Assembly (NCBI GenBank): GCA_964511265.1
Contig: CAZEES010000003.1
Coordinates: 836-64,835 of the forward strand
From: an uncultured Candidatus Nitrosopelagicus sp.
GTDB taxonomy: Archaea > Thermoproteota > Nitrososphaeria > Nitrososphaerales > Nitrosopumilaceae
Length of the DNA stretch: 64,000 nt
Direction of reading: 5' to 3'
The translations under genes were made by a program, and so were the position numbers. How positions within the stretch are numbered: position 1 is the stretch's first letter; each line of letters opens with the position of its first letter. Below, one piece after another: positions 8,403 to 26,308 of the stretch. Under the pieces are notes generated by a model, which searched no databases, was not told where the DNA came from, and was given only the letters and a program-made list of their open reading frames with translations.

Positions 8403-9476
8403 ATGAAAAAAAGAGTTGCAATAGTAGGAGTTACAGGTTCTGTGGGTCAAGAATTTGTACAATCGTTAGATAATCACCCATGGTTTGAAGTAACTCAGAT
8501 TGCAGCATCTGAACGTTCAGCTGGAAAAATGTATCTGGATGCAATTAGAGATTCTAGTGGAATTATTGCATGGGATGTGGGTGGAGAAATTCCAGAATAT
8601 ATCAAAAATATGAAAGTTTTGAAAATAGACGAAGTCAATGTTCAAGAATTAGATTTAATCTTCTCAGCAGTGGAATCAGAAGCTGCTAGAGATATAGAAA
8701 CTAAATTTGCAAAGGATTTACCAGTAATTTCAACATCATCAGCCTATAGATATGAAGAAGATGTGCCAATTCTAATTCCGGGAATAAATGATGAACAAGC
8801 CGAATTGTTAGAGATTCAAAAAAAGAATCGAGATTGGAAAGGATGGGTTGCACCACTTCCAAACTGTACCACTACCGGTTTAGTAATTACACTAAAGCCA
8901 TTACTAGAAGAATACGGTGCAAAAAAAGTAATGATGACTTCAATGCAAGCAATTTCAGGTGGAGGAAAAACTGGAGTGTCAGCAATGGGAATTACAGATA
9001 ATATTTTGCCATATATACCAAAAGAAGAGAAAAAAGTTAGAATTGAAACTAGAAAAATTCTTGGTAAACTAAAAGATGGAAAGATTGAAGATGCAGACAT
9101 CAAAGTGAGTTGCACCTGTACAAGAGTTCCAGTAATTGATGGACATACAGAATCGGTATTTGTCGAGACAGAAAAAGAGATTGACCCTAGCGTAGCAAAA
9201 GATACGTACAATGAGTATAACAAAGAAATTTCAGTTGCAGGATTACCTTCTGCACCTGAAAAATATTATGCATTTCATGAAGATCCAACAAGACCACAGC
9301 CTAGAATGGAAAGAGAAGTTGGAGATGGCATGACTACTTCAATCGGTAGAGTTGAAAAAGAAGAATTGTTTGAAAATGGATTAAAGTATATGTTATTTTC
9401 ACATAATAAAAAAATGGGCTCTGCAAAAGGAGCAGTTCTTTTGGCAGAAATGCTTTACAAGAAAGAGAAGATTTAG
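8403..9476 (+). CDS. asd: Aspartate-semialdehyde dehydrogenase
   Basis: GVTGSVGQ, PNCTT catalytic Cys, QAISGGG, RVPVIDGH. Confidence 0.95.
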   Translation: MKKRVAIVGVTGSVGQEFVQSLDNHPWFEVTQIAASERSAGKMYLDAIRDSSGIIAWDVGGEIPEYIKNMKVLKIDEVNVQELDLIFSAVESEAARDIETKFAKDLPVISTSSAYRYEEDVPILIPGINDEQAELLEIQKKNRDWKGWVAPLPNCTTTGLVITLKPLLEEYGAKKVMMTSMQAISGGGKTGVSAMGITDNILPYIPKEEKKVRIETRKILGKLKDGKIEDADIKVSCTCTRVPVIDGHTESVFVETEKEIDPSVAKDTYNEYNKEISVAGLPSAPEKYYAFHEDPTRPQPRMEREVGDGMTTSIGRVEKEELFENGLKYMLFSHNKKMGSAKGAVLLAEMLYKKEKI

Positions 9477-9547
9477 TCTAAAATTTTAGAAATCTTCCAA
9501 TAATATCTTTATTAAAGGTAGTAATTTCTAAAATGCCGGTGAATTAA

Positions 9548-10003
9548 ATGGCGAAGATAGACGATCTTGATTTAAAAATTCTTTCAGAATTGAGTAATGA
9601 TGCATCAGTATCAGTTCCAAAATTATCAGATAAAATTAACATCAATTCGTCTGTTGTTTATAGCAGAATTAAACGTCTTTTAAAACAAAAATTAATTCAG
9701 AGATATACAATAGATGTTAATGATAAAGAATTAGGATATGTAGTAAAATCTGTTACAGGAATTAACATGGATTCCAAAAGACGAGATACGATAATTGAGG
9801 AGTTATTCAAAATTGAAGGTGTTAGAGAGATTTCAGAAGTTACGGGAAGATTTGACATCATGGTTACAATGTATGCAAGATCATTAAATGATATGCACAA
9901 GGTAGTTTCGGAGAATATTGGTAAAATTGAAGGGATCTTAGGTTCTGAGAGCTTCATAGAGATGAAAAGAAGGACGAAACCAATGCCTTACATGCCAGAG
10001 TAA
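9548..10003 (+). CDS. Lrp/AsnC family transcriptional regulator
   Basis: DDLDLKILSEL HTH start; VTGRFDI RAM domain. Confidence 0.92.
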   Translation: MAKIDDLDLKILSELSNDASVSVPKLSDKININSSVVYSRIKRLLKQKLIQRYTIDVNDKELGYVVKSVTGINMDSKRRDTIIEELFKIEGVREISEVTGRFDIMVTMYARSLNDMHKVVSENIGKIEGILGSESFIEMKRRTKPMPYMPE

Positions 10004-10040
10004 ACGCGTGATATTTATTTTTCCGAGGAAAAGAGACTAC

Positions 10041-10970
10041 ATGCAAGAAACAACTACAAAAATCAAAGTAAAAACATACTATGAATTAACAAAACCAAAA
10101 ATTTGGTACCTCTTAGTTTTTACAGCATTTGGAACTGCAATAACTGCATCAAATATCTATAACATTGAGATTTCAATTGCGACCTGGGCCTTGATGCTTT
10201 TTGGAGTTGCTGCAGGTTCTGCAGCAGCTAATACTTTGACGAATTATCATGATAGAGATATTGATGAGGTTATGGAAAGAACAAAAGGCAGACCAATTCC
10301 AAGTAAGAGAATTTTTCCTGCTGAAAAAGCAAGAGACTTTGGATTAGTTTTAGCAGGGATTTCAATTGCATGTGCATTTGGAATTGCATTCACTACATCA
10401 TTTTGGAATGGGATGTGGTGCGGTATTTTTATGGTGTTTGGTTTGGCAGATAACATTTTGATTTATAGTCATGCATTGAAAAGAAAGAGCCAACTTAACA
10501 TCATACTTGGAGGATTTTCGGGTGGTGCACCAGCAATGATTGGATATGCCGCAGTTACACTAACTGGATTGTGGGACTTTGGGTTAATCATGGCAGGATT
10601 AGTATTCATTTGGATTCCAATGCACATTTGGGCATTGACATTACACTTTAGAGATGATTATCAAAAAGTAAATGTTCCAATGTTAACTGCAGTATTATCT
10701 GAAAAAACATCAGCTAGGGTAATTGCTGCAACTACAGTTATGATGGTAGTATTTAGCATAGTGCCATTCTTTTTGACAACGGATACAGGTGAGCCAGTTA
10801 TGAGTGAAGTTTACCTCTATACTGCGATAGCATCAGGTGTGTTGATGGTAGTACTTAGTGCATGGGTCGTATCAAAACCAACTGAAAAGGCGTCATGGGT
10901 TTTATTCAAATTTTCAAGTCCATATCTTGCAGTGTTGTTTATTGCATTAATGGTAGACTCTGCGCTTTAA
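10041..10970 (+). CDS. cyoE: Protoheme IX farnesyltransferase (heme o synthase)
   Basis: LTKPKI, NYHDRDIDEVMERTKGRPIP, WIPMHIWAL, DDY..VNVPML. Confidence 0.92.
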   Translation: MQETTTKIKVKTYYELTKPKIWYLLVFTAFGTAITASNIYNIEISIATWALMLFGVAAGSAAANTLTNYHDRDIDEVMERTKGRPIPSKRIFPAEKARDFGLVLAGISIACAFGIAFTTSFWNGMWCGIFMVFGLADNILIYSHALKRKSQLNIILGGFSGGAPAMIGYAAVTLTGLWDFGLIMAGLVFIWIPMHIWALTLHFRDDYQKVNVPMLTAVLSEKTSARVIAATTVMMVVFSIVPFFLTTDTGEPVMSEVYLYTAIASGVLMVVLSAWVVSKPTEKASWVLFKFSSPYLAVLFIALMVDSAL

Positions 10971-11013
10971 CAGAAATAGAATCATTTTATTACTCGATTT
11001 TATTTGGAAACAT

Positions 11014-11190
11014 ATGGGGATTCGCCTACGCTGTAAAGATTATGGATACGATTGTGAATTTGTAGTAGAGGCAGATGATGCTCAAGAAGTTATGAAAGAA
11101 TTTGGGAAACATTCTGATGAGGAACATGGCATATGGTATTCAGATGAATCACTAAAGCAAATAGTTCAAAACAAGTACAATCTCAAATAA
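11014..11190 (+). CDS. Small DUF1059-like Cys/His protein (58 aa, not in ORF track)
   Basis: Hand translation MGIRLRCKDYGYDCEFVVEADDAQEVMKEFGKHSDEEHGIWYSDESLKQIVQNKYNLK; C..GYDC...H...EHG pattern. Confidence 0.8.
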   Translation: MGIRLRCKDYGYDCEFVVEADDAQEVMKEFGKHSDEEHGIWYSDESLKQIVQNKYNLK

Positions 11191-12264
11191 TCAGTTAGGT
11201 TTCAGTATTATTTTCCCAACTAATCCTTTTCCGTTTAACATTTTGTTATGAGCATCAACGGCATTTTCAAATGTGAAAATAGAGTCAATTATGACCTTGA
11301 TTTTGCCTTGACCCATCCAATAGAATCCATCTTCTAGCTCAGCACGAGTTCCTTGTGTTGAACCTAAAATGTTGATTCCTTTGAAAAATATATGTCGTAA
11401 ATCGGCAGGAGCATCATAGCCAGTTGTAGCCCCAGTAGTGACAATTGTTGCACCATATTTGAGTAAAGTTAGTTCTTTGTTAAAATGTGAGCCACCAATA
11501 TGCTCAAAAATTACATCAATTCCTGGCGCTTCATTATTCTTTTTTGCCAATTCTTTTGATATCTTGAAAACTTCTTTGTGCCAGTCTTCTTTTCTATGAT
11601 CTACTGCATAATCAGCACCAAGTTCTTTTAATTGTTCTAGTTTTTCTGGGCTTGCAGTTGCAATTACAGTACAACCGTACAATTTTGCAATTTGAATACC
11701 AAAAATACCAACACCAGAACTACCTCCCATTACAAGAACAATTTGTCCTGGTTTGATCTTAGCTCTTCCAACCAACATATGCCAGGACGTTAAAAGCGTC
11801 ATGGAAGCAGCAGCTGCGTCTTCATAAGAAATTGAATCTGGAATTTTTAAGACATTGATTTCAGGTAAATGTGCAATTTCACAATATCCACCCCAAAGAG
11901 GTCCTGTTTGAAATCCCCAGATTATTCTTTTTTTACAATCAAATTCTCTTCCAGAAGTACATCTAGAACAAACACGACAAGACATGTTTCCATGCGAAAC
12001 AACTCTATCACCAACTTTGATAGTTTTTACATCTTCACCAACTGCAATTACTTCACCAGCTGCATCAGTACCAGAGATATGTGGTAAAGGTACTGCAAGA
12101 GGTTTGCCTCGCATTCCCCATATGTCATCATAGTTTAATGCAGCAGCTTTCACACGGAATAATACTTCATTTGGTTTTGGAACAGGGTCAGGAACTTCTT
12201 TTAGTTGTAAGATTGATTCAAAATCATTATTTTCTGCATATTTTTCATAAACTAAAGCTTTCAT
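11191..12264 (-). CDS. MDR-superfamily NAD(P)H oxidoreductase, paralog 1
   Basis: GroES-like domain, structural Zn CRVCSRC...C, GGSSGVG nucleotide-binding motif. Confidence 0.9.
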   Translation of the reverse strand: MKALVYEKYAENNDFESILQLKEVPDPVPKPNEVLFRVKAAALNYDDIWGMRGKPLAVPLPHISGTDAAGEVIAVGEDVKTIKVGDRVVSHGNMSCRVCSRCTSGREFDCKKRIIWGFQTGPLWGGYCEIAHLPEINVLKIPDSISYEDAAAASMTLLTSWHMLVGRAKIKPGQIVLVMGGSSGVGIFGIQIAKLYGCTVIATASPEKLEQLKELGADYAVDHRKEDWHKEVFKISKELAKKNNEAPGIDVIFEHIGGSHFNKELTLLKYGATIVTTGATTGYDAPADLRHIFFKGINILGSTQGTRAELEDGFYWMGQGKIKVIIDSIFTFENAVDAHNKMLNGKGLVGKIILKPN

Positions 12265-12268
12265 TTTG

Positions 12269-13597
12269 TTAGTAATTGTCTAGAGAGATTTTATCAAGTT
12301 TTGGAATTTTTGCAATTTCAAATCCTTCTTTTCTTTTATTTAGTGGTCTCGTTGCATCAATTCCAAGTTTGGCTGTCTTTAGATTTTTTTGATCACTGGA
12401 AGGATCCAAACTGGAACCACGTACATTTTTTATTAATACCATATCTTTGTCAGCCTGGAATCTTGTTGCCATAGCATATTCAACCTGATCAGAATTTGAT
12501 GGTTCAATATCATCGTCTACAATAGTAACCATTTTCAAAGAGCGATGAGATGCAAAAATTTCATTAATTATTTTTTTAACATTGGTTGAAGGTTTTTTTG
12601 AAATTTGTGCTACAGCGTGAAGCCAGTGCGAGCCACCATTAGACAAGATCACCTGGTTAGTTGAAGGGAACTTTTTCTTTATTATTCCATTAAGTTTTGA
12701 CTCTATTGGCATTCCCATTAACAAATGATGTTCCCCAAATCCAGACAGAATGTCATGGAAAATTGGATTATTTCTATAATACATTTTTTCTAGTTCAAAG
12801 AGTGGTTGCTCTCTAGGATGATCATATGTACGCAGCATTTCAACCATCCATTCTTTGTCCGTCTTATCTTGGAGAATTTTACCTTCCATGACAATCTCAG
12901 TACCTGATGGAACATGCATTCCAGAGTATGGGCATTTTGTTAAAGTCAATTTATTTCTCAATAAGGAATTAGCTATATGCAATTCATCTTTTCCCCAATC
13001 TGCTTGATATGCACCAGCAATTGATATTGCAGGATGGACACCTACAGTGATTGCAACTTTTAGATCTTCACCATGTTCTTTTGCATTAATGAAATTTCTA
13101 TGGGAATGACGTCCCTCAACCATTCTAATTGAGAAATGGTTTCTATCAATCGGCATTAATCTATGAAATGCAGAGTTCTGTGTTTTGAATTCATGGTTTT
13201 GAGAATAAACTATAGCAGATGTGATAAATGGGCCAGATTCTTTCTCAAAATGTGTAACAATAGGAAGTTCGGAAAGATCACTTGAAGAATTTTCAAAGAA
13301 TTTTCCATTGGATGTGGTTTTTGGTTTTTTTGCATTTTTTATTGAAGAGTAGATTGATTCGTGTATTTTATTTTCTTTTGCATTTACTGCAAGTGCAAAT
13401 CTTTTTCGTGTACCAACTAAATTACTAACTAATTTGAAATTGTTTTGTTTTATGTTTTCAAAAAGTAATGCTGAACCTCCATCGGCTTTTGCAGTAATTC
13501 CCGCGATTTCAAATTTTGTTGAAACTTTTTTTTGAATGATTTTAATTCCTTTAGATTTTTTTAGTTTGGATATGTAATCACGCAAGTCTCCAGTCAT
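12269..13597 (-). CDS. UbiD-family prFMN-dependent decarboxylase
   Basis: DLRDYISKL start, HFEKESGPFITS, VDDDI, TAKLGIDATRP. Confidence 0.9.
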   Translation of the reverse strand: MTGDLRDYISKLKKSKGIKIIQKKVSTKFEIAGITAKADGGSALLFENIKQNNFKLVSNLVGTRKRFALAVNAKENKIHESIYSSIKNAKKPKTTSNGKFFENSSSDLSELPIVTHFEKESGPFITSAIVYSQNHEFKTQNSAFHRLMPIDRNHFSIRMVEGRHSHRNFINAKEHGEDLKVAITVGVHPAISIAGAYQADWGKDELHIANSLLRNKLTLTKCPYSGMHVPSGTEIVMEGKILQDKTDKEWMVEMLRTYDHPREQPLFELEKMYYRNNPIFHDILSGFGEHHLLMGMPIESKLNGIIKKKFPSTNQVILSNGGSHWLHAVAQISKKPSTNVKKIINEIFASHRSLKMVTIVDDDIEPSNSDQVEYAMATRFQADKDMVLIKNVRGSSLDPSSDQKNLKTAKLGIDATRPLNKRKEGFEIAKIPKLDKISLDNY

Positions 13598-13926
13598 TGT
13601 GTAATTTCTCCCATAATTTCATGCATTAATTGTTTTGTAGTATTATTATCTAATGATTTTTCAAAATTCGCAGTGACAAGACATATGCCTTTTAAAAAAG
13701 ACGAGATTTTTTCAGATAATAATTTCAAAAAAAGTTCTTCAGATTTAGTTGGTATGATTATAGAGGTGGATGGAACAGGTCCAGAGCTAACAGATATTAG
13801 CATTGGACCAATTTTAGGAGAGTTTTCTGAGATGGATATTATTATTCCATTATCAAAATTTAGCATATTCACTAGAAAAGTACGATTCTCGTATGCAATT
13901 GTCTTTGTATTACAACCAGTTTCCAC
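13594..13926 (-). CDS. Conserved hypothetical protein
   Basis: 110-aa ORF coupled to ubiD. Confidence 0.7.
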   Translation of the reverse strand: METGCNTKTIAYENRTFLVNMLNFDNGIIISISENSPKIGPMLISVSSGPVPSTSIIIPTKSEELFLKLLSEKISSFLKGICLVTANFEKSLDNNTTKQLMHEIMGEITQ

Positions 13927-13942
13927 AAAAAGACTTTTTTAA

Positions 13943-14566
13943 TTATGCCTTTATTGCTATCGGTTCAGACTTTGCGTCGAATGCTTCTTTGACTAGATCT
14001 CTTGCCTTTTTGATAGTTATACGTTCTTCAGATTTTCTGAGTTCTTGAACGGTCTTTGTTTTTGTCCATCCTTCAGAGACAGCAGTTGCTAATGTTGTTT
14101 TAACAAAATCAGATGATGATGCTGCAACTTCAACAGGAGTCTCAACTGGTGCATTCTTTGCATCAAATGCCTCTTTAGTTAATTCTCTTGCCCTTTTGAT
14201 GGTCATGCCTTCAGATTTTCTGAGTTCTTGAACGGTCTTTGTTTTTGTCCATCCTTCAGAGACAGCAGTTGCTAATGTTGTTTTAACAAAATCAGATGAT
14301 TCTGCCGAAACTGTTGCAACTTGTGCCACCTCAATAGTTCGAGATTTGAGAGATGCTGCGTCAGCTTCAACTCTTGCTCGGAGTTTTGCTTTGTACTTCA
14401 AGTTACGTGGTTTAGTTCTTAATCGGTAACCACAGCATGGGCACCAAAGTCCTTCCCAATTAATGAAGATTTCACAGATTTGACAACGTCTTTGACCAGA
14501 TGCATAACGTCCAGTGCCTACTGGTTTTTGTGCTTTGTATCTAGAACAGATTCCTTTACATGTCAT
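13943..14566 (-). CDS. Cys-rich Zn-finger protein with duplicated C-terminal helical module
   Basis: CKGIC...CQIC...CPCC N-terminus; two copies of SDFVKTTLATAVSEGWTKTKTVQELRKSE. Confidence 0.85.
   Translation of the reverse strand: MTCKGICSRYKAQKPVGTGRYASGQRRCQICEIFINWEGLWCPCCGYRLRTKPRNLKYKAKLRARVEADAASLKSRTIEVAQVATVSAESSDFVKTTLATAVSEGWTKTKTVQELRKSEGMTIKRARELTKEAFDAKNAPVETPVEVAASSSDFVKTTLATAVSEGWTKTKTVQELRKSEERITIKKARDLVKEAFDAKSEPIAIKA
14026..14300. repeat. Perfect 92-bp direct repeat (14026-14117 and 14209-14300)
   Basis: Base-by-base identity read from the sequence; period 183 bp. Confidence 0.95.
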
Positions 14567-14737
14567 TTTGTATCCAAATATTGTAGAATTTACAACTATA
14601 TAAAAGAGATCTAGTGATTTTTTACAAAAAAATTGATTTTTTATGTAAAAATTTTATTGATTTATATAGAAAAACTAATCAATTTCAAGAAAAAAGGGAT
14701 TATCTATAAATATCTTTGTGTATTTTCGGACTTTGTA

Positions 14738-15382
14738 CTAACCAATAATTGAGAGTGGTAAGACAGATTTTGGAATTCCACTTCTTTGTGAAATGAATTG
14801 GGCGGACAACATGTCCCGTTTTCCACGCTGATTATGATTTTTGATTTTGAGTGAAGTACTTGATTCATCAACAAATTCAATTTCAAACTTGGAACAAAAT
14901 TTCAAATTTAACATTTGAAGAATTCTATTAGCAGTTTTCATATCACCATTGCCAATTTTAACAATTTTTCTAGATGCAGGTAATTCAGCCAGAATTGAGA
15001 TTAGATAAAGAATTAGTTTATCAATAGATACAAAAAATGTTCTTGCAATCTCGTTTTCTAGATATGTAACTGAAACACCAATTCTTTCACCAGGATCAAT
15101 TCCTAAAATCAACCTAGATGAATTAGTCGGTGAATTAAGCATTTTTGTAATAATTCCCTTAACAACTATTGGATCCTTACTAATTATTTCATCAAATAAC
15201 ATGGGCATTGCAATTTGTTTTGGGGCCTCTTTTTCTGTAGTAATGACTAGATCACCATCAAAATCCCCAATTTCACTAGGCAATATGGAATCAAATGGAA
15301 TTGATAATTCCTTGAAAATTTTAGATAATTTGAAATATGGTTTGCCATACTCGGTGGCGATTGCAATTTTTTTATTTTCTAT
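14738..15382 (-). CDS. Hypothetical protein with RNase H-like (ILGIDPG) domain; start uncertain
   Basis: ORF track starts at TTG 15283, but the frame stays open and coding-like to about 15391; ILGIDPGERIG and FVDESSTS motifs. Confidence 0.7.
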   Translation of the reverse strand: MENKKIAIATEYGKPYFKLSKIFKELSIPFDSILPSEIGDFDGDLVITTEKEAPKQIAMPMLFDEIISKDPIVVKGIITKMLNSPTNSSRLILGIDPGERIGVSVTYLENEIARTFFVSIDKLILYLISILAELPASRKIVKIGNGDMKTANRILQMLNLKFCSKFEIEFVDESSTSLKIKNHNQRGKRDMLSAQFISQRSGIPKSVLPLSIIG

Positions 15383-15502
15383 ACGAGTGATAATTCAGGT
15401 ATGGTTTGTACAAATTTAGTACTTTTGGGAGTAAATTTCCTACACAATTGGTCAAAAATGTCTCTAAACAGGTAGAAGATGTTGAATTTAGTGGCTGATA
15501 AC

Positions 15503-15832
15503 TTAGGATTTTAGAATTGTAGATACAGCATTTTCTACAGCAGAATCAAAGTTAGAATCAATATTTTGCTGGATTTCAGTGATTTTTGCCTCTCCCTCTT
15601 GGGAAATTTTCTGAGATTCAGATTCTGCTTTTGATTTAGAGTCAGAAATGAGGGATTCTGCCTCAGAGTTGGCTATTTTTCTTGTCTGTTCAAGAAGAGA
15701 ATCAATCTCCTTTTGGGCAATTGAATTTAATGATTTTTTCATATCGGCCAAACCGAGATTTATAGAGTCAATTTCAGATTCCAGTTCCGATAAGGATTTG
15801 ATAATTCCATCGACTTTGGTAGTTTGGCTCAT
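15503..15832 (-). CDS. Coiled-coil protein resembling A/V-ATPase subunit H/G
   Basis: 109 aa, heptad-rich, EAESLISDSKSKAE pattern. Confidence 0.6.
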   Translation of the reverse strand: MSQTTKVDGIIKSLSELESEIDSINLGLADMKKSLNSIAQKEIDSLLEQTRKIANSEAESLISDSKSKAESESQKISQEGEAKITEIQQNIDSNFDSAVENAVSTILKS

Positions 15833-15867
15833 TTTGATTTTTTCCTCTTACTCCATTATTAAAATCT

Positions 15868-16215
15868 TCAATTTGTAGTTAACAATAAGATCGCTCTTGC
15901 CAGATCGCCTTCAGCCTCAGCTAGTGCATTTTTTGCTGTTTCCTCATCAACATTGGCCTGTTGACATACAAGTGAAATATCCTCATCGCTGAAAATTGGA
16001 ATGTCTAGTTCTTTTTCTTCTATATTATCAGCTACTACCTGGAAAATTGAGTTTTCTTTAGTTTTCATCTCAGTTACTGCTGGTTTGCTAATTATGATCT
16101 CTTTTTTGTCTGTCTTAATTATGACTTCTTGGACATTATTCACCTCTTCCATGTCCATTCCCATCTTGTCCATCATTCTTCTCATTTGGCGATTTCCGCC
16201 ACGTCCGCCCATCAT
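15868..16215 (-). CDS. nac: Nascent polypeptide-associated complex protein
   Basis: NRQMRRMMDKMG, C-terminal UBA domain (GDLARAILLL). Confidence 0.95.
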   Translation of the reverse strand: MMGGRGGNRQMRRMMDKMGMDMEEVNNVQEVIIKTDKKEIIISKPAVTEMKTKENSIFQVVADNIEEKELDIPIFSDEDISLVCQQANVDEETAKNALAEAEGDLARAILLLTTN

Positions 16216-16691
16216 TATGATTCCTCTCCATCATTCTGAGATTTTAAACTATCTCGAATTTTGATTGCTACGCCTCTAGATTGGGTTTTAATCATGTTTG
16301 AAGAAAGAATGGATTTTCCAACGGCAATTATTTGCTTTTTGAAGAATATAGGCACGTCTGAGCCGATTTCTATCTTTGAGCCACATCTTTTCACATGTTG
16401 ACAGAATACTGATTTTCCCTGTTCTACAAATGGCTTTGAATCAGCATCAACTTCAATACAATAATTTTCTACGAATTTCTTATTTTTTGAAAAACGTTCA
16501 GCACAATAAATCGACATGGCAATTCCGCCATCTGTACGAGGAGTGAATAGTAAAAGGTCATTATGATAGACGGCTCTAATTCTGCCGGTCTTTTTTGACA
16601 TTTTGAAATCTACATCTTTTGGAATTTGTTTGGATACTCCAGCACCATAAAGTGCATCAACTGTATGGGAGATTTTTTCAAACTTGTCCAT
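16215..16691 (-). CDS. PUA-domain protein (archaeosine TGT C-terminal-like)
   Basis: SKKTGRIR, PFVEQGKSVFCQHV, RGVAIKIR. Confidence 0.85.
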   Translation of the reverse strand: MDKFEKISHTVDALYGAGVSKQIPKDVDFKMSKKTGRIRAVYHNDLLLFTPRTDGGIAMSIYCAERFSKNKKFVENYCIEVDADSKPFVEQGKSVFCQHVKRCGSKIEIGSDVPIFFKKQIIAVGKSILSSNMIKTQSRGVAIKIRDSLKSQNDGEES

Positions 16692-16831
16692 TGATTTTAG
16701 AGAATTATACCGGAAATATTAGTCTGAGTGAAAAATGTGATGGTCATCTTAAATATACAACACCTAATGTTGAGCCTAGAAAAACACATAGATCACTCAA
16801 AAAACCATATATTTAATAATTCTATATAGTA

Positions 16832-17884
16832 ATGCCGAACATGGCAGATAAGGACCAAATTAGAAAAATCCAGTTTACTGGAAAATCATCTTACATAGTC
16901 TCATTACCAAAGGATTGGATTAAAGACCAAGGTCTAAAACAAGGAGACCAAGTTACAGTTGGAAGAAATGGGAGTAAGACCTTAGAAGTCAGACCAGTAA
17001 ATTTTTCAAAATCTTCAGGAGATGAAGTTTCAAATCTCATTATTTCACCTGATGATGAAAAATCTGCCATTGTAAGAAAACTCATTGCACTATACTTTTT
17101 GAATGCAAAAACTATCAATGTCAAACCAAAAGCAGGAACTAGAATTTCTCCAACTCATAGAATTGCAATTCGAAATACTGTCAAAAAGGTTCTAATGGGT
17201 TCAGAGATTACAGCAGATTCTACAGATGGCATAACTATTCAAGTATTGATTAATCTGGTAGAATTATCAGTTGATGGTGCTTTCAAAAGAATGCTATCAA
17301 TGGCAAAATCCATGCAAACAGATGCACTATTATCTCTCAAAGAAGGAAATGAAGAACTTGCACAAGAAGTCATTAATTCAGATGATGATGTAGATAGATT
17401 TGGATTTTACATTATACGACAATTAACAATAGCAATAGAAAATCAACACATGTTAGAAGAAATGGGATTCAAGAATTCAAGAGATTGCTTAGGATATCGT
17501 GTAATTGTAAAAAACATAGAAAGAATTGGAGATCATGCAGTCACTTTAGCCCAAGATGCCATAGACATCAAAAAGCCAATCAAGGGAAAGATTATGACAA
17601 GCATTGAAAAAATGAATGAATTTGCACTTACAGCAATAGATAACACATGTTTAGCATTATTCAAAAATGACTATCAAGAAGCTGAAAAAGCAATCAGTGA
17701 ATCTCACAATATCAAAAGATACGAAGACAGTGTATTAAAAGCCCTAGAGCAAGCAAAAAACTCTGAAGAAGTTTTCAGAGTTAGAAGAATTGCTGAAAAT
17801 ATTAGAAGAATTGCTGAATATGCCAGCGATATAGGTGAAATCGTGCTAAACATGAATATTGAGAAAATCGCCAAGAAAAACTAG
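16832..17884 (+). CDS. AbrB-PhoU phosphate uptake regulator
   Basis: [19 protein letters not shown] AbrB domain plus PhoU repeats ([15 protein letters not shown]). Confidence 0.92.
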
Positions 17885-17892
17885 GTATAATT

Positions 17893-18963
17893 TTGAAATC
17901 TTGTATTTTAATTACATATGACAATCAGGACGTGATTTCAGAGGCAGAATCACTGTGTGAGGCTGCACAATATAACGTACTATTCACAATTAGAGAAAAC
18001 GAACTTCACTTTACAAAATATGGAATTAGTGAAGGAAAAATGCCAAATTTGGAAGAGATGATTGAGAAATATCAACCAGATGTTATCGTATTCGATGAGA
18101 TACTAAAGCCAAATCAAAATTACAGTCTCGCTTCAAAGTTAAAGTTAGAAATTCTAGATAGAGAGTCATTAATTTTAGAAATTTTTGAAAGTAGAGCAAG
18201 TAGTTCTGAATCAAAATTACAAGTAAAACTAGCTCAATTGCGTTATGAAAGATCACGTGCTAAAGAGCGAGTTAGACTATCAAGGATGGGCGAACAGCCA
18301 GGTTTTATGGGAATTGGTAAATTCGAAGTTGATGTTTACTATAACGATATTCAAAATAGAGTCAATAATGTAAAATCAAAATTAAAAAAAGCAGGAAAGC
18401 AACGAGCATTACACCGACAAGGAAGAGACAGATTAGGATTTAAAACAATCTCACTAGCGGGCTATACATCTGCAGGAAAAACTACACTATTCAATAGCTT
18501 AACTGGAGAATCAAAAGAAAAAAGTGCAGAACTATTCACAACACTAACAACCACAACACGAAGATTAAAGCTTGGAAGAGAAATTGCGTTAATTACAGAT
18601 ACTGTTGGATTTATCAGTAAACTACCTGCTTATTTGATTGAGGCATTCAAATCTACACTAGAAGAATTGATCTTTACAGACATTGTGTTGGTAGTGATTG
18701 ATTCATTAGATAATGATCATCAAATGAGAAAGAAATTTTCTAGTTGTTACAAAACACTAGCTGAACTAGGTGTAGAAAGAAAGAATATGATTTTTCTGTT
18801 TAACAAGTCAGAATCAATCGATGATAAGAAATTGTTACATATTATGAATAATTTAAAAATTGATGAAATAGAAAGTTGTGTAGACATATCAGCAATAACT
18901 GGAAAAAATCTCACAGAATTGAAAAAACTATTAGAAGAAAGATTTTATGGAAAAATAGATTGA
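17893..18963 (+). CDS. hflX: GTPase HflX
   Basis: [25 protein letters not shown] motifs. Confidence 0.93.
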
Positions 18964-18965
18964 AG

Positions 18966-19484
18966 ATGAAGATAGAAGTTTTAAGAATTGGTCAGAGAGT
19001 AATTCGAGATGACAGAGTAACAACACATGTTGCATTAGTTGCAAGAGCGTTTGGAGCATCAAAAATTTACATGAATGAAGTTGATCCTGAGATTGAAAAC
19101 ACCATTAAAAAAATGAACAAAACCTGGGGTGGAGAATTTGAAGTGGAATTTTTTGACGATTGGAAGAAGGTTATAAAATCAAAGAGTGATGATTACAAAA
19201 TTGTCCATTTGACAATGTATGGAGAGAAAATTGATGATGTTGCAAAAGATATTAGAAAAAATCAGAACATCTTGATTGTGGTAGGTGCTGAGAAGGTGCC
19301 TAGAACAATTTATGAAAAATCGGATTTTAACGTCTCAGTGTCAAATCAACCTCATTCGGAGATTAGTGCATTAGCAATTATCTTGGATCGATTACACAAA
19401 GGAAAGCAATTTGACATGAAATTTGATAACTCAACAAGGCGAATCATTCCTACTAAAAAAGGGAAAAAAGTGATTTCAAAGTAA
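18966..19484 (+). CDS. trm56: tRNA (cytidine56-2'-O)-methyltransferase
   Basis: RDDRVTTHVALVARAFGA, VHLTMYG, VGAEKVP, NQPHSEI; start at MKIEV. Confidence 0.95.
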   Translation: MKIEVLRIGQRVIRDDRVTTHVALVARAFGASKIYMNEVDPEIENTIKKMNKTWGGEFEVEFFDDWKKVIKSKSDDYKIVHLTMYGEKIDDVAKDIRKNQNILIVVGAEKVPRTIYEKSDFNVSVSNQPHSEISALAIILDRLHKGKQFDMKFDNSTRRIIPTKKGKKVISK

Positions 19485-19510
19485 AAATAGAGGACAGAAT
19501 GTGAGAGAAT

Positions 19511-20020
19511 ATGGTTGACAAGTATGAAGACCCTTTTGTGAAAATTGCAGCAATGATTGGCGGAGATGAGTATCTCAAAGTTGCACGTTCTCTATTAAAG
19601 ACAGAAGATGCAACAGATGAAGAAATTGCTAGTTCGACAGGACTTCGTATCAACATGGTAAGGCGAGTATTATACGATTTATTTGGAAAAGGTTTGATAA
19701 CTGGCGTTCGTGTAAAAGACGAAAGAAAAGGTTGGTTTGTTTACAGATGGCGTTCAAGAAGAGATGAAGTTGAAAATTTCATAGAAAACCAAAAAAAGAA
19801 GATCCTTGACAGACTACAAAAGAGATTGGATTATGAAAACTCATCTGATTTTTACCATTGCGGAAATGAAGATTGTTCAAGATCAACATTTGAAGATGCA
19901 TTAGAATTATTTTTCAAATGTCCATCATGTGGACAAGTTCTTAATCTTAAGAAAAATGAAAAAATTCGAAAGAATTTTACAAAAAAAATTGATCAGATTA
20001 AAGGCGACATACGAGTTTAA
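19511..20020 (+). CDS. tfe: Transcription factor E (TFIIE alpha)
   Basis: wHTH VRRVLYDL, GWFVYRW, Zn ribbon CPSCG. Confidence 0.95.
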   Translation: MVDKYEDPFVKIAAMIGGDEYLKVARSLLKTEDATDEEIASSTGLRINMVRRVLYDLFGKGLITGVRVKDERKGWFVYRWRSRRDEVENFIENQKKKILDRLQKRLDYENSSDFYHCGNEDCSRSTFEDALELFFKCPSCGQVLNLKKNEKIRKNFTKKIDQIKGDIRV

Positions 20021-20670
20021 ATTTTATAATTTAAAATAATCTCATTACCACTTTTATGTACTTTTTTTAATTTTAAAGATGGCTTGATTTTTGATGATGT
20101 TAAAGAAGGTCCTTCAAATAGATTGACAGTATTTTTTGAGCCTAAAACATAAGGAGTAAGTGCAATAATCATTTCATCAATAAGATTTTTCTTCAAAAAA
20201 GAGTGGTTTAGTGTCCCACCGCCCTCTAGAAGGATAGTCTTGATTCCTTTTTTGTACAAAATAGATAGAAGTTTTGTTATATTTACTTGGTTTTTTCCAC
20301 ATACAATTACATCTAGAGATAATTTTTGTAACCGATGTAGATTTGAATTTGATACAAGTTCGGATGTAACAATGATGGTTGAAACACTTTTACAAGTTTT
20401 AATTATTCGAGAATTATTCTTGATTGTTCCACGAGAATCTAAAATAATTCGAATAGGGTTTTTTCCTTTGACATGTCTGACTGTTAAAAGAGGATCATCC
20501 TGTTCTACCGTGTTTTTTCCAACTAGTATAGCATCTGACTTTGAACGAAGTTTATGAACTCGTATCTTATCAGATTTTGATGACAATACAATTTTTTTGT
20601 TTTTTTGGCCAATTTTCCCATCAAGAGTTATTGCAGCACTCAGAATAATTTGAGGTTTAGATTTTTCCAT
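20017..20670 (-). CDS. 2,5-diamino-6-ribosylamino-pyrimidinone 5'-phosphate reductase (RibD C-terminal-like)
   Basis: AITLDGKI, VHKLRSKSDAILVG, LLEGGGTLN. Confidence 0.92.
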   Translation of the reverse strand: MEKSKPQIILSAAITLDGKIGQKNKKIVLSSKSDKIRVHKLRSKSDAILVGKNTVEQDDPLLTVRHVKGKNPIRIILDSRGTIKNNSRIIKTCKSVSTIIVTSELVSNSNLHRLQKLSLDVIVCGKNQVNITKLLSILYKKGIKTILLEGGGTLNHSFLKKNLIDEMIIALTPYVLGSKNTVNLFEGPSLTSSKIKPSLKLKKVHKSGNEIILNYKI

Positions 20671-21841
20671 TTACAATTTTTCCTCCAATCATTACAGCCT
20701 TAATTGATTTTTCAGAAGCACGATGAACTATGGATGCATGAACATTATTCATTGGATCCAGATCAATTGAATTTTTATCAATGAATATGCAATCTGCAAG
20801 ATAATTTTCTTTAATAGATCCAATCTTTTGATTGAGAATTTTTCCGGCATTAACAGTAGCCATTTTTAGTATTTGTTTTGGATCAAATCTGTTTTGAGAT
20901 ATGCCCATTGTTACTTTCCATAGATAATCCATCTCTCTAAAAATATCGGGGGAATTAATCATTACATTATCAGTTCCAATTGCAATGTTACAACCTAGTT
21001 TTTGCATAAGTACAATGTTAGGAATTCCTTCAGCCAATGAAGAATTTGCGCGTGGACACACAACTATACCTCTAGTGTTTTTTGCTGCTAATTTTAGATC
21101 ATTTTTTGTTGCAAAAGTCATATGAATTAGGAAAGTTGGTTTTAGTAACATCGCTCTTTGGATTTCGGATTTTGCAGTTAGTTTTTTTGAAACGTTTACA
21201 CTTTCCATGGTTTCAGCTGCATGGATCACACGCATTTTTTTTGTTTTTGAGAATGATTGAAGATTAGAATTACTGTTTTCGTTTGTTCCACTAATTCCAA
21301 TTCCATCACAATTTTTTAATAATTGGGTTAATTGTTCACAATTTGCCTCAGGTAGTGGCATGTTACTCTTAATTTCAGTCCTAGTGTTGTAATGCTCAAT
21401 TCTACCTAGAATGACACATCGAATAGGTACATCAATTAAGGATTTTTTCAGTAATAGTACGCCATCTAGGCCACCTTCTCTAAAATCAACAAAAGTTGTA
21501 ATTCCTTTTTTGATCATAGATTTTGCAGAATTTTTTATATATTTTGATAAAACTTTACTGGGAGTTTCTTTTAGAAGTTTTTGTTTGAGACCAATCATTG
21601 GATGAATTTTTGAATTTACATCAGCATCAATAGATAGATCTTTTCCAATTGAATCAGCTATATGTGTATGTGAGTTGATTAATCCAGGAATTAATAATAA
21701 ATTTGAACAATCAATAGATTTCTCTTTTGATGATATGTGTTTGGAGATTTTTTCAAACTTTCCATTTTTAATTTGTACATTAGTTGATTCGACAAATTTT
21801 AAGTGGTTTCCATATAGTATACTAATATTTTTTAGAATCAA
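20657..21841 (-). CDS. Metal-dependent amidohydrolase within riboflavin operon
   Basis: NSHTHIAD, IHAAET, IHMT, VVCPRAN, GTDN. Confidence 0.88.
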   Translation of the reverse strand: MILKNISILYGNHLKFVESTNVQIKNGKFEKISKHISSKEKSIDCSNLLLIPGLINSHTHIADSIGKDLSIDADVNSKIHPMIGLKQKLLKETPSKVLSKYIKNSAKSMIKKGITTFVDFREGGLDGVLLLKKSLIDVPIRCVILGRIEHYNTRTEIKSNMPLPEANCEQLTQLLKNCDGIGISGTNENSNSNLQSFSKTKKMRVIHAAETMESVNVSKKLTAKSEIQRAMLLKPTFLIHMTFATKNDLKLAAKNTRGIVVCPRANSSLAEGIPNIVLMQKLGCNIAIGTDNVMINSPDIFREMDYLWKVTMGISQNRFDPKQILKMATVNAGKILNQKIGSIKENYLADCIFIDKNSIDLDPMNNVHASIVHRASEKSIKAVMIGGKIVNGKI

Positions 21842-22587
21842 TTTAATTCATAAATATCAGGTTTTTCTTTTCCTGAATCTCTAATTTCTCTTATGGTGTC
21901 AAGAGATTTTGTTGCAAGCTTTACAGCATTTCTAGATGTTTGTGCAGTACCTATTCCACAGTTCAATACAACTTGAAATTCATCTTTACACATTTTGATA
22001 AATTCTTTTGCAAAATTTTTGAATTCAGAATTAGTTACTACCATAAAATTATCTCCACCCATAAAAAATGTGAGTGAGTTTTTTGAGAGAAAGTATTCTG
22101 ACATTCTCGAATATATTTTGAACATTAAAGAAGATGTGTCATAAGGAGACATTTTTTTCCGTTTGGATGTTAAATCATCTACATCTAGATGCATTATAGT
22201 AACAGAGTGTTCTGAGTGACCATTTAATGTTCCAAAAATAGAATATTGCTCATTGAGAAATTTTTGTGATTTTTTTGCTTCATATGCATCGAGATTTGCA
22301 TCGTATGGGTTTTCCCCAAAACCAATTGACATTGAAAGTTTTACATCAAAAGAAGTTTCTAGTTCTTTTTGTATTGTTATATGATCATCAAGTGTAAGAC
22401 CATTTGTAACTGAAAAGTATTCATCAGAACGATTAAGAAAAACAAGGCAGTTTTTCTTAGAAAATGATTCTTGTAATTTATGATATAATCTTGATTGTAA
22501 CATTTGTAATTCATGTTCACGATCACTTCCCAATGTAAGAGTCCAAGGACCATATCCAGTAATTTTCATTATTGTTAGTTGTATCAT
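21838..22587 (-). CDS. gch3: GTP cyclohydrolase III (IIa)
   Basis: GYGPWTLTLGSDREHELQMLQ, FMGGDNF. Confidence 0.93.
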   Translation of the reverse strand: MIQLTIMKITGYGPWTLTLGSDREHELQMLQSRLYHKLQESFSKKNCLVFLNRSDEYFSVTNGLTLDDHITIQKELETSFDVKLSMSIGFGENPYDANLDAYEAKKSQKFLNEQYSIFGTLNGHSEHSVTIMHLDVDDLTSKRKKMSPYDTSSLMFKIYSRMSEYFLSKNSLTFFMGGDNFMVVTNSEFKNFAKEFIKMCKDEFQVVLNCGIGTAQTSRNAVKLATKSLDTIREIRDSGKEKPDIYELN

Positions 22588-23000
22588 TTTTCTATTTCCT
22601 TAATCTCATTATCAAGTTTGAGTACTGCATTTACTGCATTTTCAGATACCGGTCTGATTCTTGCATATGCTTGTCTTACAGCCATACCTGGTCCAGATAT
22701 TCCAAGTGATACGGGTTTTTGATGTTTTATTGCTAATTTAGTAAGATTTCTTGCAGTTGAATTAGCTATTACTTCATCGTGTTTTGTTTGACCTTTGATG
22801 ACAGCACCTAAAGTTACTACAGCGTCAATATCATCTCTTTGCAATAACTTATCAATAATTAAAGGCATGTCGAAGATTCCTGGTACATGACTTGTATGAA
22901 TTACATCAAGATTTAGCTTTTCTGCAGTTTCTATTGCAACGTCATACATACGTGATGTGATTTTTTGATTAAAATCCGCGACAACTATTGCAATTTTCAA
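22584..23000 (-). CDS. ribH: 6,7-dimethyl-8-ribityllumazine synthase
   Basis: IVVADFN, VPGIFDMP, GAVIKGQTKHD. Confidence 0.95.
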   Translation of the reverse strand: MKIAIVVADFNQKITSRMYDVAIETAEKLNLDVIHTSHVPGIFDMPLIIDKLLQRDDIDAVVTLGAVIKGQTKHDEVIANSTARNLTKLAIKHQKPVSLGISGPGMAVRQAYARIRPVSENAVNAVLKLDNEIKEIEK

Positions 23001-23002
23001 AA

Positions 23003-23677
23003 TTAATTCACCTTAGAAAATTCAAGTAATTCTTTACCATTAATGAAAGGAATCGCGTTTTCTTTTGCATATTTTTCTGCTTTATCAACTGATAATGCAG
23101 AATATGTTTCAGCGTCCATCATTTCACAGATAGCAGTAATTGGTGAGAGGTTTGCCAATTGAGTCAAGTATACTGACATTTCAGTGTGACCAGTTCTAGA
23201 AGAGAGAAGACCATTTGACGCTATCAGCAGAGGAATATGACCAGGAGTTTTGAAGGTTGAGTTGAAAATGTGTTTTGGATTTTCTTTTTTATATAAAGTG
23301 GACATCTCTTTGATAGTTAATGCTCTATCTCGATCAGTGATTCCAGTGTAAGTTTGTTTATGGTTTATACTAATTGAAAATGTTGGATGATCTCCATATG
23401 GAGCAGTTCCCATAACCATTTTTTTGGATTCTTCATCTAGATGATTTGATTGAGACAACATGTTGTGCATGTATTTTAGTTGTAATTGTTCTGCAAGAGA
23501 GTTATCAATTGCAAGACAAATTAATCCACCTGCGTGTTTTCTCATTCTTACAATATGTTCAGGGGTGATAAATTCTGCTGCAACAACCATATCGATTTCA
23601 TTTTCACGGCCATCAGAATCGTGAATCATTACAAATTCGCCACGTTTTAATGATGAAATTGCAGAATCAAATGTCAT
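23003..23677 (-). CDS. ribB: 3,4-dihydroxy-2-butanone 4-phosphate synthase
   Basis: DSDGRENEID, GLICLA, TGITDRDR, PGHI, RTGHTE. Confidence 0.95.
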   Translation of the reverse strand: MTFDSAISSLKRGEFVMIHDSDGRENEIDMVVAAEFITPEHIVRMRKHAGGLICLAIDNSLAEQLQLKYMHNMLSQSNHLDEESKKMVMGTAPYGDHPTFSISINHKQTYTGITDRDRALTIKEMSTLYKKENPKHIFNSTFKTPGHIPLLIASNGLLSSRTGHTEMSVYLTQLANLSPITAICEMMDAETYSALSVDKAEKYAKENAIPFINGKELLEFSKVN

Positions 23678-23751
23678 AATAAAAATAATTTTTTAGTTAT
23701 TATAAAGTTTACTAGATTTTTAGTTATTACCAATTTATTGGTAATTATTAG

Positions 23752-24336
23752 TCATTTTAAAATGTATTTTCCTAGCACATCAGTCTCAATGTTCAACTTA
23801 TCATCAATGTTTTTTGTTTTAAAATTAGTAATTTGTATTGTATGAGGTATGAGACAAACAGAACCTAGATCATTTTTTACATCAACAACTGTCAAGCTTA
23901 TTCCATCTAAAGCAATAGAACCTTTTTTGACTACATATTTTTTGAGACTTTTTGGAATTTTAAACCAAACTTTTACTTCTTTTGGTTTTTTTTCTATTTT
24001 TTTAATTTGTGCAACACCATCAACATGACCCAATACAAAATGCCCCTCTAATCTTTCTCCAACTTTAAGACTACGTTCAACATTAACAATACTTCCAACT
24101 TTAAGATTTCCTAAATCTGTTTTTTTCATTGTTTCATCAATCATTTCAAACGTACAGATATTTTTCACAATTTTAGTTGCACTAAGACATACACCGTTCA
24201 GTGCAACACTCTGACCGATTTTTAGTCCTTTAGAATCTTTACCTAGATCAACAGATACTTTGATTGCACTACGATTTTTTGTGTTTTGTTCTATTTTTTT
24301 GATTTTTCCAGTGCTAGTAATTATTCCAGTAAACAT
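23752..24336 (-). CDS. ribE: Riboflavin synthase, bacterial alpha-chain type
   Basis: MFTGII N-terminus, SVALNGVCLS, GHFVLGHVD, KGSIALDGISLTV. Confidence 0.95.
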   Translation of the reverse strand: MFTGIITSTGKIKKIEQNTKNRSAIKVSVDLGKDSKGLKIGQSVALNGVCLSATKIVKNICTFEMIDETMKKTDLGNLKVGSIVNVERSLKVGERLEGHFVLGHVDGVAQIKKIEKKPKEVKVWFKIPKSLKKYVVKKGSIALDGISLTVVDVKNDLGSVCLIPHTIQITNFKTKNIDDKLNIETDVLGKYILK

Positions 24337-24369
24337 GTTAGTGTAAGATATTTTGTGTATAAATAATGT

Positions 24370-25224
24370 TTAGATAATTTCGAGTAGGGCTTTGGCTCGT
24401 TTATAATGAACTTCATCAATCATTTTTCCATCAACTACAATTGCTCCTTTTCCTTTCTTTGTTGATTTTTCATATTCTTGTACTACTAATTTTGACCAAG
24501 TTATTTCAGAGGAATTTGGATGAAATATTTTGTGCGTTATTTTGAGTTGATCAGGATGGATTATACTTTTTCCTGTATAGCCTAATTCTTTACCTAATTT
24601 ACAATCTTGTTGTAAGCCTTTTTCATCTTTGATTTCTTGCCATATTCCATCAATAGCAGCAACTCCTGCAGCGGCAGCTGCAACTGGTACTTTATATCTA
24701 GAATATTTTGCACCAATTGGATTTCCTTTTGTGTATTCAATTTGCATATCATTCAATAAATCAAATATTCCAAATACTATAGCATCAACTCTCTTACTTG
24801 CTGATGCAATTTCATAGCAATTAATCACACCTAGAGCGGATTCTATGGAAGGAATTAGACGTATTTTTTTGAGTTTTCTTTTCTTTTCTAAATTTGAGAT
24901 AATTTTTTCAATTTTTTTCAATTCTTTTGCAGAATCCACTTTTGGGATGACAATTCCATCTAATCCTTTTTGAACTACTTTTTCTAAATCGCTAGGAATT
25001 TTGCCTGATTGAGGTGAGTTAGTTCTTACAAATACAGATGCAGAAAAATCTTTGCGTTCTTTTAATTTTTTTGAAATTAATGTTCTAGCATTTTGTTTTT
25101 CGTTATCAGGAACTGAATCTTCTAAATCAAAACAAACTATGTCACCAGAAAGTGATTTTGCTTTTTCTAGAAATCTTGGATTATTTCCAGGTACAAAAAC
25201 TAGACTACGAAAAAGATTTGTCAT
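24370..25224 (-). CDS. CitE/HpcH-family CoA-ester lyase
   Basis: RSLVFVPGNN, DLEDSV, IPKVDS, GYTGKSIIHPDQ. Confidence 0.9.
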   Translation of the reverse strand: MTNLFRSLVFVPGNNPRFLEKAKSLSGDIVCFDLEDSVPDNEKQNARTLISKKLKERKDFSASVFVRTNSPQSGKIPSDLEKVVQKGLDGIVIPKVDSAKELKKIEKIISNLEKKRKLKKIRLIPSIESALGVINCYEIASASKRVDAIVFGIFDLLNDMQIEYTKGNPIGAKYSRYKVPVAAAAAGVAAIDGIWQEIKDEKGLQQDCKLGKELGYTGKSIIHPDQLKITHKIFHPNSSEITWSKLVVQEYEKSTKKGKGAIVVDGKMIDEVHYKRAKALLEII

Positions 25225-25231
25225 TAAATGA

Positions 25232-26308
25232 CTATGCGCCTTCAGGCTTCATTAAGATTTTGCCAAAGAACTTGCCAGATAGCATCTTGGTGTGAGCCTC
25301 TGCTGCTTGTTCGAATGTATGGATTGAGTCAACTGCTGCTTTAATTTTTCCTTGTCCCATCCAGTATAGACCTTCATCAAGTTCAGCTTTTGTTCCTTGT
25401 GTTGAACCTAGGACGTTAATTCCTTTGAAGAATATGTGTCTAAGATCTATTTGTGCGTCATAACCTGTTGTTGCACCACATGAAACTAGAGTTGCTCCAT
25501 ATTTGAGTAAGGTTAGTTGCTTATTGAAATGGGTTTGACCAATGTGGTCAAATGCAACATCAATTCCAGGTGCTTGATTCTTTGTTTTAGCGATTTCTTT
25601 TGAGATTTTGAAGACTTCTTTATTCCAATCGTCTTTTCGGTGATCTACTGCATGATCTGCACCAAGTTCAAGACATTTATCTAATTTATCAGGACTAGCA
25701 GTTGCAATTACATCACAGTTGTATAATTTGGCAATTTGAATTGCAAAACTTCCTACACCAGAACCACCACCCATTACAAGTACGGTTTGACCTGGAGTGA
25801 TTTTTGCTCTGCCAACTAACATGTGCCATGAGGTTAGAATTGTCATAGATGCTGCTGCTGCGTCTTCATAAGAAACTGAATCAGGAATATGTGAAACATT
25901 AACTTCTGGTAAATGAATTTCTTCGCTGTATGCACCCCATAGTGGACCAGTTTGGAATCCCCAGACTTGTCTTTTCACACAATCAAATTCTCTACCACTT
26001 GTACAAGCACTACAAACTCTACATGCTAAATTAGAATGTGAAACAACTCTATCGCCAACTTTGAAACCTTTTACATCCTCACCAACTGCAATCACATCTC
26101 CTGCAACATCTGAACCAGATACGTGTGGTAGTGGAACTGGAACTGGGTTTCCTCTCATTCCCCAGATATCATTATAGTTTAGAGCAGATGCTTTGTTTGT
26201 GAAAATTACCTCATCTGGTTTTGGTTTTGGTGAATCAATATCTTCAACCTTGAGGATTTTAGCATAATCGTCATCAGGTGCATATTCACGGTATACAACT
26301 GCTTTCAT
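25232..26308 (-). CDS. MDR-superfamily NAD(P)H oxidoreductase, paralog 2
   Basis: Closely similar to 11191-12264; CRVCSAC...C, GGGSGVG. Confidence 0.9.
   Translation of the reverse strand: MKAVVYREYAPDDDYAKILKVEDIDSPKPKPDEVIFTNKASALNYNDIWGMRGNPVPVPLPHVSGSDVAGDVIAVGEDVKGFKVGDRVVSHSNLACRVCSACTSGREFDCVKRQVWGFQTGPLWGAYSEEIHLPEVNVSHIPDSVSYEDAAAASMTILTSWHMLVGRAKITPGQTVLVMGGGSGVGSFAIQIAKLYNCDVIATASPDKLDKCLELGADHAVDHRKDDWNKEVFKISKEIAKTKNQAPGIDVAFDHIGQTHFNKQLTLLKYGATLVSCGATTGYDAQIDLRHIFFKGINVLGSTQGTKAELDEGLYWMGQGKIKAAVDSIHTFEQAAEAHTKMLSGKFFGKILMKPEGA

Follow-up and report, generated by a model that had tools for sequence, protein, structure and literature searches.

What reaction is carried out by a pair of reductase genes in the genome of an uncultured ammonia-oxidising archaeon? 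The genes lie in a 64,000-nucleotide stretch of Candidatus Nitrosopelagicus sp. DNA (assembly GCA_964511265.1, contig CAZEES010000003.1, positions 836 to 64,835; hereafter, the window), and both encode members of the medium-chain dehydrogenase/reductase (MDR) superfamily. A sequence-only reading of the window had put them forward as candidates for the acryloyl-CoA reductase of the 3-hydroxypropionate/4-hydroxybutyrate (3HP/4HB) cycle, through which ammonia-oxidising archaea account for much of the carbon fixed in the dark ocean. The gene for this step, listed for years as missing and still unidentified in a 2018 model (PMC6038301), is now assigned, and the window carries that gene family. The idea was correct, but it had already been published in 2019. 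We consider it likely that both genes encode NADPH-dependent enoyl-CoA (ene-)reductases, which form a thaumarchaeal clade sister to the crotonyl-CoA carboxylase/reductase (Ccr) lineage. What we add is that two long-lived paralogs carry complementary remnants of the Ccr CO2 pocket, that of the two it is the derived copy which has been characterised in N. maritimus, and that the ancestral copy is tied to a CitE-like lyase across the sampled lineages. These points help with annotation, metabolic modelling and the choice of an enzyme to assay; the known pathway is unchanged.

The MDR1-type reductase (P0001, 357 amino acids) is encoded on the minus strand at 11191..12264 and the MDR2-type reductase (P0002, 358 amino acids), also on the minus strand, at 25232..26308. 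Both open reading frames (ORFs) are intact and stand exactly where the earlier reading had placed them, and a domain search found ADH_N and ADH_zinc_N in both proteins. The paralogs had been called near-identical, which overstates their likeness: a pairwise alignment gives 73% identity (260/356), and they are diverged paralogs of a duplication inside Nitrosopumilaceae. All the motifs that had been listed are present, namely ALNYDDIW and SGTD in P0001, ALNYNDIW and SGSD in P0002, and WGFQTG and GSTQG in both, together with an intact structural-zinc loop (CxxCxxCx7C). Aligning the two proteins with the three classical zinc-dependent alcohol dehydrogenase (Zn-ADH) type MDRs of the same genome (GVCHSxLH, PGHE), we find that the catalytic-zinc Cys and His-Glu are replaced in both, which bears out the claimed loss of the C..GHE ligands. 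Among the five MDRs of this genome (1.10 Mb, 99.8% complete), only P0001 and P0002 are without the classical GVCHS...GHE zinc site.

Three papers (PMC10176493, PMC7918591, PMC8252502) describe the acrylyl-CoA reductase of N. maritimus as an MDR with a weak carboxylase side activity. The literature names Nmar_1565 as the acrylyl-CoA reductase on the basis of heterologous expression, a result reported by Bernhardsgrütter et al. 2019 (J Am Chem Soc 141:9778). In PMC12542715, N. viennensis Adh4 (NVIE_024420) is assigned to the same step and co-varies with the cycle enzymes in proteomics. Of the two N. maritimus SCM1 copies, the one at 1433389-1434459 shares 79% identity with P0001 and the one at 1477386-1478462 shares 92% with P0002. 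Nmar_1565 was mapped by crude ORF counts on the SCM1 chromosome from two anchors, and not through its deposited sequence. One anchor is amoA at 1,367,297, which we take to be Nmar_1500. The other is the sole aldehyde dehydrogenase gene of SCM1, at 1,467,389, which appears as Nmar_1608 in a published supplement. The MDR1-type gene lies 43-45 genes before the aldehyde dehydrogenase gene and 65-67 ORFs plus two tRNA genes after amoA. Counting thus gives a tag of ~1563-1569 for the MDR1-type gene and ~1622 for the MDR2-type gene, and those 120 kb of SCM1 hold no further MDR. Therefore, the characterised enzyme is of the MDR1 type, and P0001 is its ortholog.

P0001 shares with Nmar_1565 the NYDD and SGTD motifs, the structural-zinc loop and a loose grouping in our careful tree, where the MDR1-type copies do not resolve as one clade. 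The two differ in that Nmar_1565 has Glu where P0001 has the Gln of WGFQTG. P0002, a paralog with 70-73% identity to the Nmar_1565-type gene, belongs to the same archaeal clade; it differs from Nmar_1565 in having Asn and Ser for Asp and Thr, and in being tied to a CitE-like gene. In the published supplement, NVIE_024420 adjoins NVIE_024430, annotated citE. The N. viennensis protein for this step is therefore the CitE-linked type, to which P0002 corresponds. P0002 would most likely have the same activity as the Nmar_1565-type enzyme, because its type is the only one present in single-copy ammonia oxidisers. The mapping of the P0001 ortholog to Nmar_1565, the distribution and the Ccr-like phylogeny (see below) all agree with the proposed acryloyl-CoA reductase role.

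We then compared the residues that hold CO2 in Ccr. The pocket is made of Asn81, Phe170, Glu171 and His365, with Thr82 and Ser119 in a second shell (Stoffel et al. 2019, PMC6628652). Since Thr82 comes next after Asn81, Asn81 is the second Asn of NYN, and its position aligns with the N/D residue that separates MDR2 from MDR1. The N/D contrast in NY(N/D)D, to which the sequence-only reading had drawn attention, is a paralog-diagnostic difference at this very position and might, as that reading proposed, separate their specificities. The Ccr counterparts named in that reading (NYN..W, WGFET and GSH) hold as well: the Ccr alignment puts NYN-VW, WG(Y/F)E and GSH in the same columns, and a residue-level alignment with the Ccr structure 4GI2 reproduces the correspondences. 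The Ccr reference keeps all four pocket residues (N, F, E, H). MDR2 keeps two of the four (N, F, Q, T) and the window's MDR1 one (D, F, Q, T), while 25 of 30 MDR1-type orthologs, including that of N. maritimus, have D, F, E and T and thus keep two. The paralogs differ consistently at the equivalents of Asn81 and Ser119, where P0002 has Asn and Ser and the MDR1 types have Asp and Thr.

Judged by this four-residue rule, neither paralog should be able to act as an efficient carboxylase. Failure of the rule, together with the grouping with Ccr/ECR, agrees with the suggestion that P0001 and P0002 are non-carboxylating enoyl-thioester reductases. In the chemistry that we propose by reference to the ECR family, a hydride would pass from NADPH to C-beta of the thioester. 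With an incomplete CO2 pocket, the enolate so formed would take up a proton instead of CO2. For P0001 and P0002 we infer the activity, the use of NADPH and the lack of carboxylation.

The MDR superfamily has a single fold, so that a predicted structure would not tell the competing readings apart. Neither P0001 nor P0002 reached the curated cut-off of any NCBIfam model. The top score for P0001 came from the PIG3 quinone subfamily (TIGR02824), at 198 bits against a cut-off of 296.8, with a best stretch covering residues 125-355 only; the quinone oxidoreductase (QOR) model NF008024 gave 96 bits (cut-off 348). The Ccr model TIGR01751 gave 182.3 bits for P0001 and 179.0 for P0002 (cut-off 378.55; the M. 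bullatum Ccr used as a control scored 617.8), and the Sulfolobales acryloyl-CoA reductase model NF041172 gave 152.6 and 146.6 (cut-off 500). For the AcuI/YhdH models TIGR02823 and NF051456, the scores were 84 and 69 bits for P0001 and 76 and 63 bits for P0002 (cut-offs 297 and 440). The closest solved structures by sequence were a Thermus MDR (2EIH, 3e-66), 5K1S and the Ccr structure 4GI2. Searching 1.84 billion representatives, we found an isolated archaeal cluster, after which the score falls from 553 to 277 bits; a tblastn search of plasmids with P0002 returned only generic 'zinc-binding dehydrogenase' names.

The references in our two trees, a quick one and a careful one, were E. coli YhdH and QorA, seven Sulfolobales enzymes that pass the NF041172 cut-off, and seven Ccr, of which six carry that annotation and the seventh is the M. 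bullatum protein (618 bits with TIGR01751). In the careful tree the archaeal MDR copies form a clade with support of 100/100. This clade joins the seven Ccr and five short metagenomic forms bearing WGFxTG with support of 99/93 in the careful tree and 97 in the quick tree. QorA falls outside the Ccr and archaeal clade in both trees, and in the careful tree the Sulfolobales enzymes stand at the base beside the Zn-ADHs, far from the ammonia-oxidiser clade. The sequence-only reading had called for a phylogeny against Ccr, AcuI, QOR and the Sulfolobales enzyme, and the outcome is Ccr-like and not QOR-like. As regards AcuI the answer is partial: YhdH, which is without the zinc loop, fell outside the clade in the quick tree only, on a long and unsure branch.

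The window proteins resemble Ccr/ECR (TIGR01751; 4GI2, 6OWE) in the NYN-W, GSD, WGF and G-S-x columns and in having no catalytic zinc, and the two are sister lineages. Ccr/ECR use enoyl-CoA substrates, a likeness that probably extends to the window proteins. They differ in length (401-451 amino acids in the seven Ccr versus ~357) and in the pocket, of which the window proteins keep one or two residues out of four. The Cys4 structural-zinc loop is kept in the window proteins and absent from the M. bullatum Ccr, the one of the seven that was examined for it. The Sulfolobales acryloyl-CoA reductase (NF041172, Metallosphaera/Sulfolobus type) carries out the same reaction in the crenarchaeal cycle and belongs to the same superfamily. 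Unlike the window proteins, it keeps the catalytic-zinc ligands (LCYRD, GHE), and it branches near the Zn-ADHs; the Sulfolobales and thaumarchaeal lineages recruited their acryloyl-CoA reductases independently. The Thermus thermophilus HB8 'alcohol dehydrogenase' 2EIH is also without catalytic-zinc ligands and keeps the structural-zinc loop, but where the window proteins show NY(N/D)D, WGFQTG and GSTQ, its motifs are NHLD, LGEH and GSTM. Representatives bearing the 2EIH motifs fell outside the Ccr and archaeal clade, 2EIH itself having been left out of the trees.

In an even sample of the class, an MDR gene of this family was present in 86/86 genomes of the ammonia-oxidiser order (80/80, 3/3 and 3/3 in its three families). 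Among other Nitrososphaeria, 1/64 had a match, a 41%-identical 2EIH-like protein. The distribution tallies take in one unpublished genome (G388), on which no conclusion hangs. Surveying the window genome for rival candidates, we found no acyl-CoA dehydrogenase, no old yellow enzyme (OYE) above the cut-off and no AcuI-type enzyme. It has no Sulfolobales-type enzyme either (best score 152 bits versus 500), and no genome of the family reaches that cut-off. The three other MDRs of the window genome are of the Zn-ADH type. Five short-chain dehydrogenases/reductases are also present, beyond the survey of acyl-CoA dehydrogenases, OYE, MDRs and Sulfolobales/AcuI types.

The MDR2 gene is followed by a gene for a CitE/HpcH-family acyl-CoA lyase-like protein (284 amino acids; 24370..25224, minus strand) that starts 7 nt after the MDR2 stop, and the two are probably co-transcribed. 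The lyase-like protein matches Pfam HpcH_HpaI (7.5e-49) and also C-C_Bond_Lyase, and scores below the NCBIfam cut-offs for citE (219 bits; cut-off 443) and RipC/Ccl (160 bits; cut-off 375). Using tblastn maps (20 loci, 12 genomes), we found a CitE/HpcH-family gene directly after MDR2 in every family, and the pair is kept even at loci from which the adjoining riboflavin and S19e genes are gone. One copy of the CitE ortholog was found in 84/86 sampled ammonia-oxidiser genomes. Inspection of the listed coordinates by eye places it no more than ~25 nt from an MDR copy in almost all genomes that list both; the exceptions are G084 (~1.1 kb) and G378 (120 nt). The gene is broken in the other two genomes, with stop codons in G299 (C1:1477184-1478031) and a split in two in G406, of the window's genus (C21:9513-10513), and each of them has an intact reductase beside it. 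Some lineages may be able to do without the lyase, or the breaks may be assembly errors.

The single-copy genomes (G036, G373, G391 and G372) have the CitE-linked type only, and according to the careful tree Nitrosopumilaceae and family f50 each had a duplication of their own. The MDR2 type is the ancestral copy, and the characterised N. maritimus enzyme is of the derived one. With regard to MDR2 itself, the high protein identity to the N. maritimus copy (92%) is accompanied by a DNA identity of 77% across the region. In the tree these two copies pair with support of 100/100. To the copy of G012, a congener of N. maritimus, the window protein is only 83% identical. Such a pattern could reflect lateral exchange or an unusually strong constraint.

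Several points weigh against the reading that we prefer. The described cycle has no use for a CitE-type lyase, and the pairing could mean that MDR2 has another substrate. Most MDR1 orthologs have Glu at the Gln of WGFQTG in the window's copy, which may therefore differ in its properties from the characterised enzyme. Nmar_1565 was linked to the MDR1 type by counting genes from two anchors. The activity in the literature covers Nmar_1565, from which that of P0001, P0002 and the MDR2 type is extended by homology. In another reading, unlikely in our judgement, only the MDR1 type is the acryloyl-CoA reductase of the cycle, while MDR2 and the CitE-like lyase act on another CoA ester in a separate assimilation or repair branch. 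MDR2 might then reduce mesaconyl-, itaconyl- or crotonyl-CoA, or supply propionyl-CoA to a glyoxylate-condensing lyase. The tight MDR2-CitE spacing (7-25 nt in nearly all sampled ammonia oxidisers), a pair that outlasts rearrangement of its flanks, an HpcH/CitE-like neighbour in 16/80 loci of the bacterial-like sister clade, and the consistent paralog differences at the Asn81 and Ser119 equivalents all speak for such a branch. Yet in ammonia oxidisers with a single copy, among them the deep-branching family f49 (1.58 Mb), that copy is of the CitE-linked type, and they still need the reductase step. Moreover, the CitE-linked Adh4 of N. viennensis co-varies with cycle enzymes in PMC12542715, and in G299 and G406 CitE is broken beside an intact MDR. 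We give slightly more room, though still tentatively, to the idea that the CitE-linked copy and the lyase make up a two-enzyme CoA-ester module, so far undescribed and characteristic of all ammonia-oxidising archaea. Such a module would, for example, condense reductase-made propionyl-CoA with glyoxylate, or cleave an ester of the citramalyl-/malyl-CoA type. The 3HP/4HB cycle would then gain an unrecognised assimilation or damage-control branch, with the unlinked Nmar_1565 type as a later specialist.

Other activities are far less probable than enoyl-CoA reduction. Automated annotation would make P0001 and P0002 quinone or other non-thioester oxidoreductases of the zeta-crystallin/PIG3 kind; PIG3 is indeed the best NCBIfam score for P0001, and database names of relatives read 'NADPH:quinone reductase-like' or 'zinc-binding dehydrogenase'. 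That score is well below its cut-off and draws on part of the protein only, QorA branches outside the clade, and an ortholog has a published acrylyl-CoA activity. We hold this identity to be very improbable. Just as little weight falls on the suggestion that one copy is, or doubles as, the missing succinic semialdehyde reductase. It was raised for Adh4 in PMC12542715, which lists Adh4 / Nmar_1565 as putative for that step, 'lacking strong evidence'. Both window proteins are without the catalytic-zinc Cys, His and Glu used by MDR carbonyl reductases, and the three Zn-ADH-type MDRs of the genome suit that chemistry better.

Finally, we looked at the gene neighbourhoods. In the short Ccr-like sister clade, the HpcH/CitE-like gene found beside the reductase in 16 of 80 metagenomic loci is divergent and also shows malate-synthase-barrel similarity. 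A 969-residue FAD-linked oxidase fused to a 4Fe-4S domain adjoins the reductase in 9/80. Such contigs include L113, L114, L116, L121, L122 and L131, and this neighbourhood is possibly a glycolate/glyoxylate-linked CoA-ester module. On a Halostagnicola larsenii plasmid (L082, 2921-7002), the gene for a 35%-identical MDR comes directly after those for an acyl-CoA dehydrogenase and a methylmalonyl-CoA-mutase-family protein, an order that recalls the ethylmalonyl-CoA pathway. The metagenomic and haloarchaeal contexts fit CoA-ester chemistry, without pointing to one pathway.

Around MDR1, the block Asd - Lrp - heme O synthase ... UbiD (window 8403-13597) is syntenic with N. maritimus 1451420-1460938. 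MDR1 sits between heme O synthase and UbiD in the window's genus only; in N. maritimus it is ~17 kb away. We rejected a functional link of MDR1 with the UbiD-family decarboxylase gene (4 nt upstream), as the adjacency is restricted to this genus, and likewise a link with the neighbouring UbiA-family gene, whose adjacency is also genus-only and which scores as heme O synthase. Elsewhere in the window, an amidohydrolase gene (20657-21841) lies inside the riboflavin operon (GCH III, RibH, RibB, RibE, RibD_C), an arrangement kept across all three ammonia-oxidiser families in the mapped loci. The window has a G+C content of ~34%. Codon/GC3 bias was uninformative as a proxy for expression, MDR2 standing at the 94th percentile for GC and the 41st for GC3.

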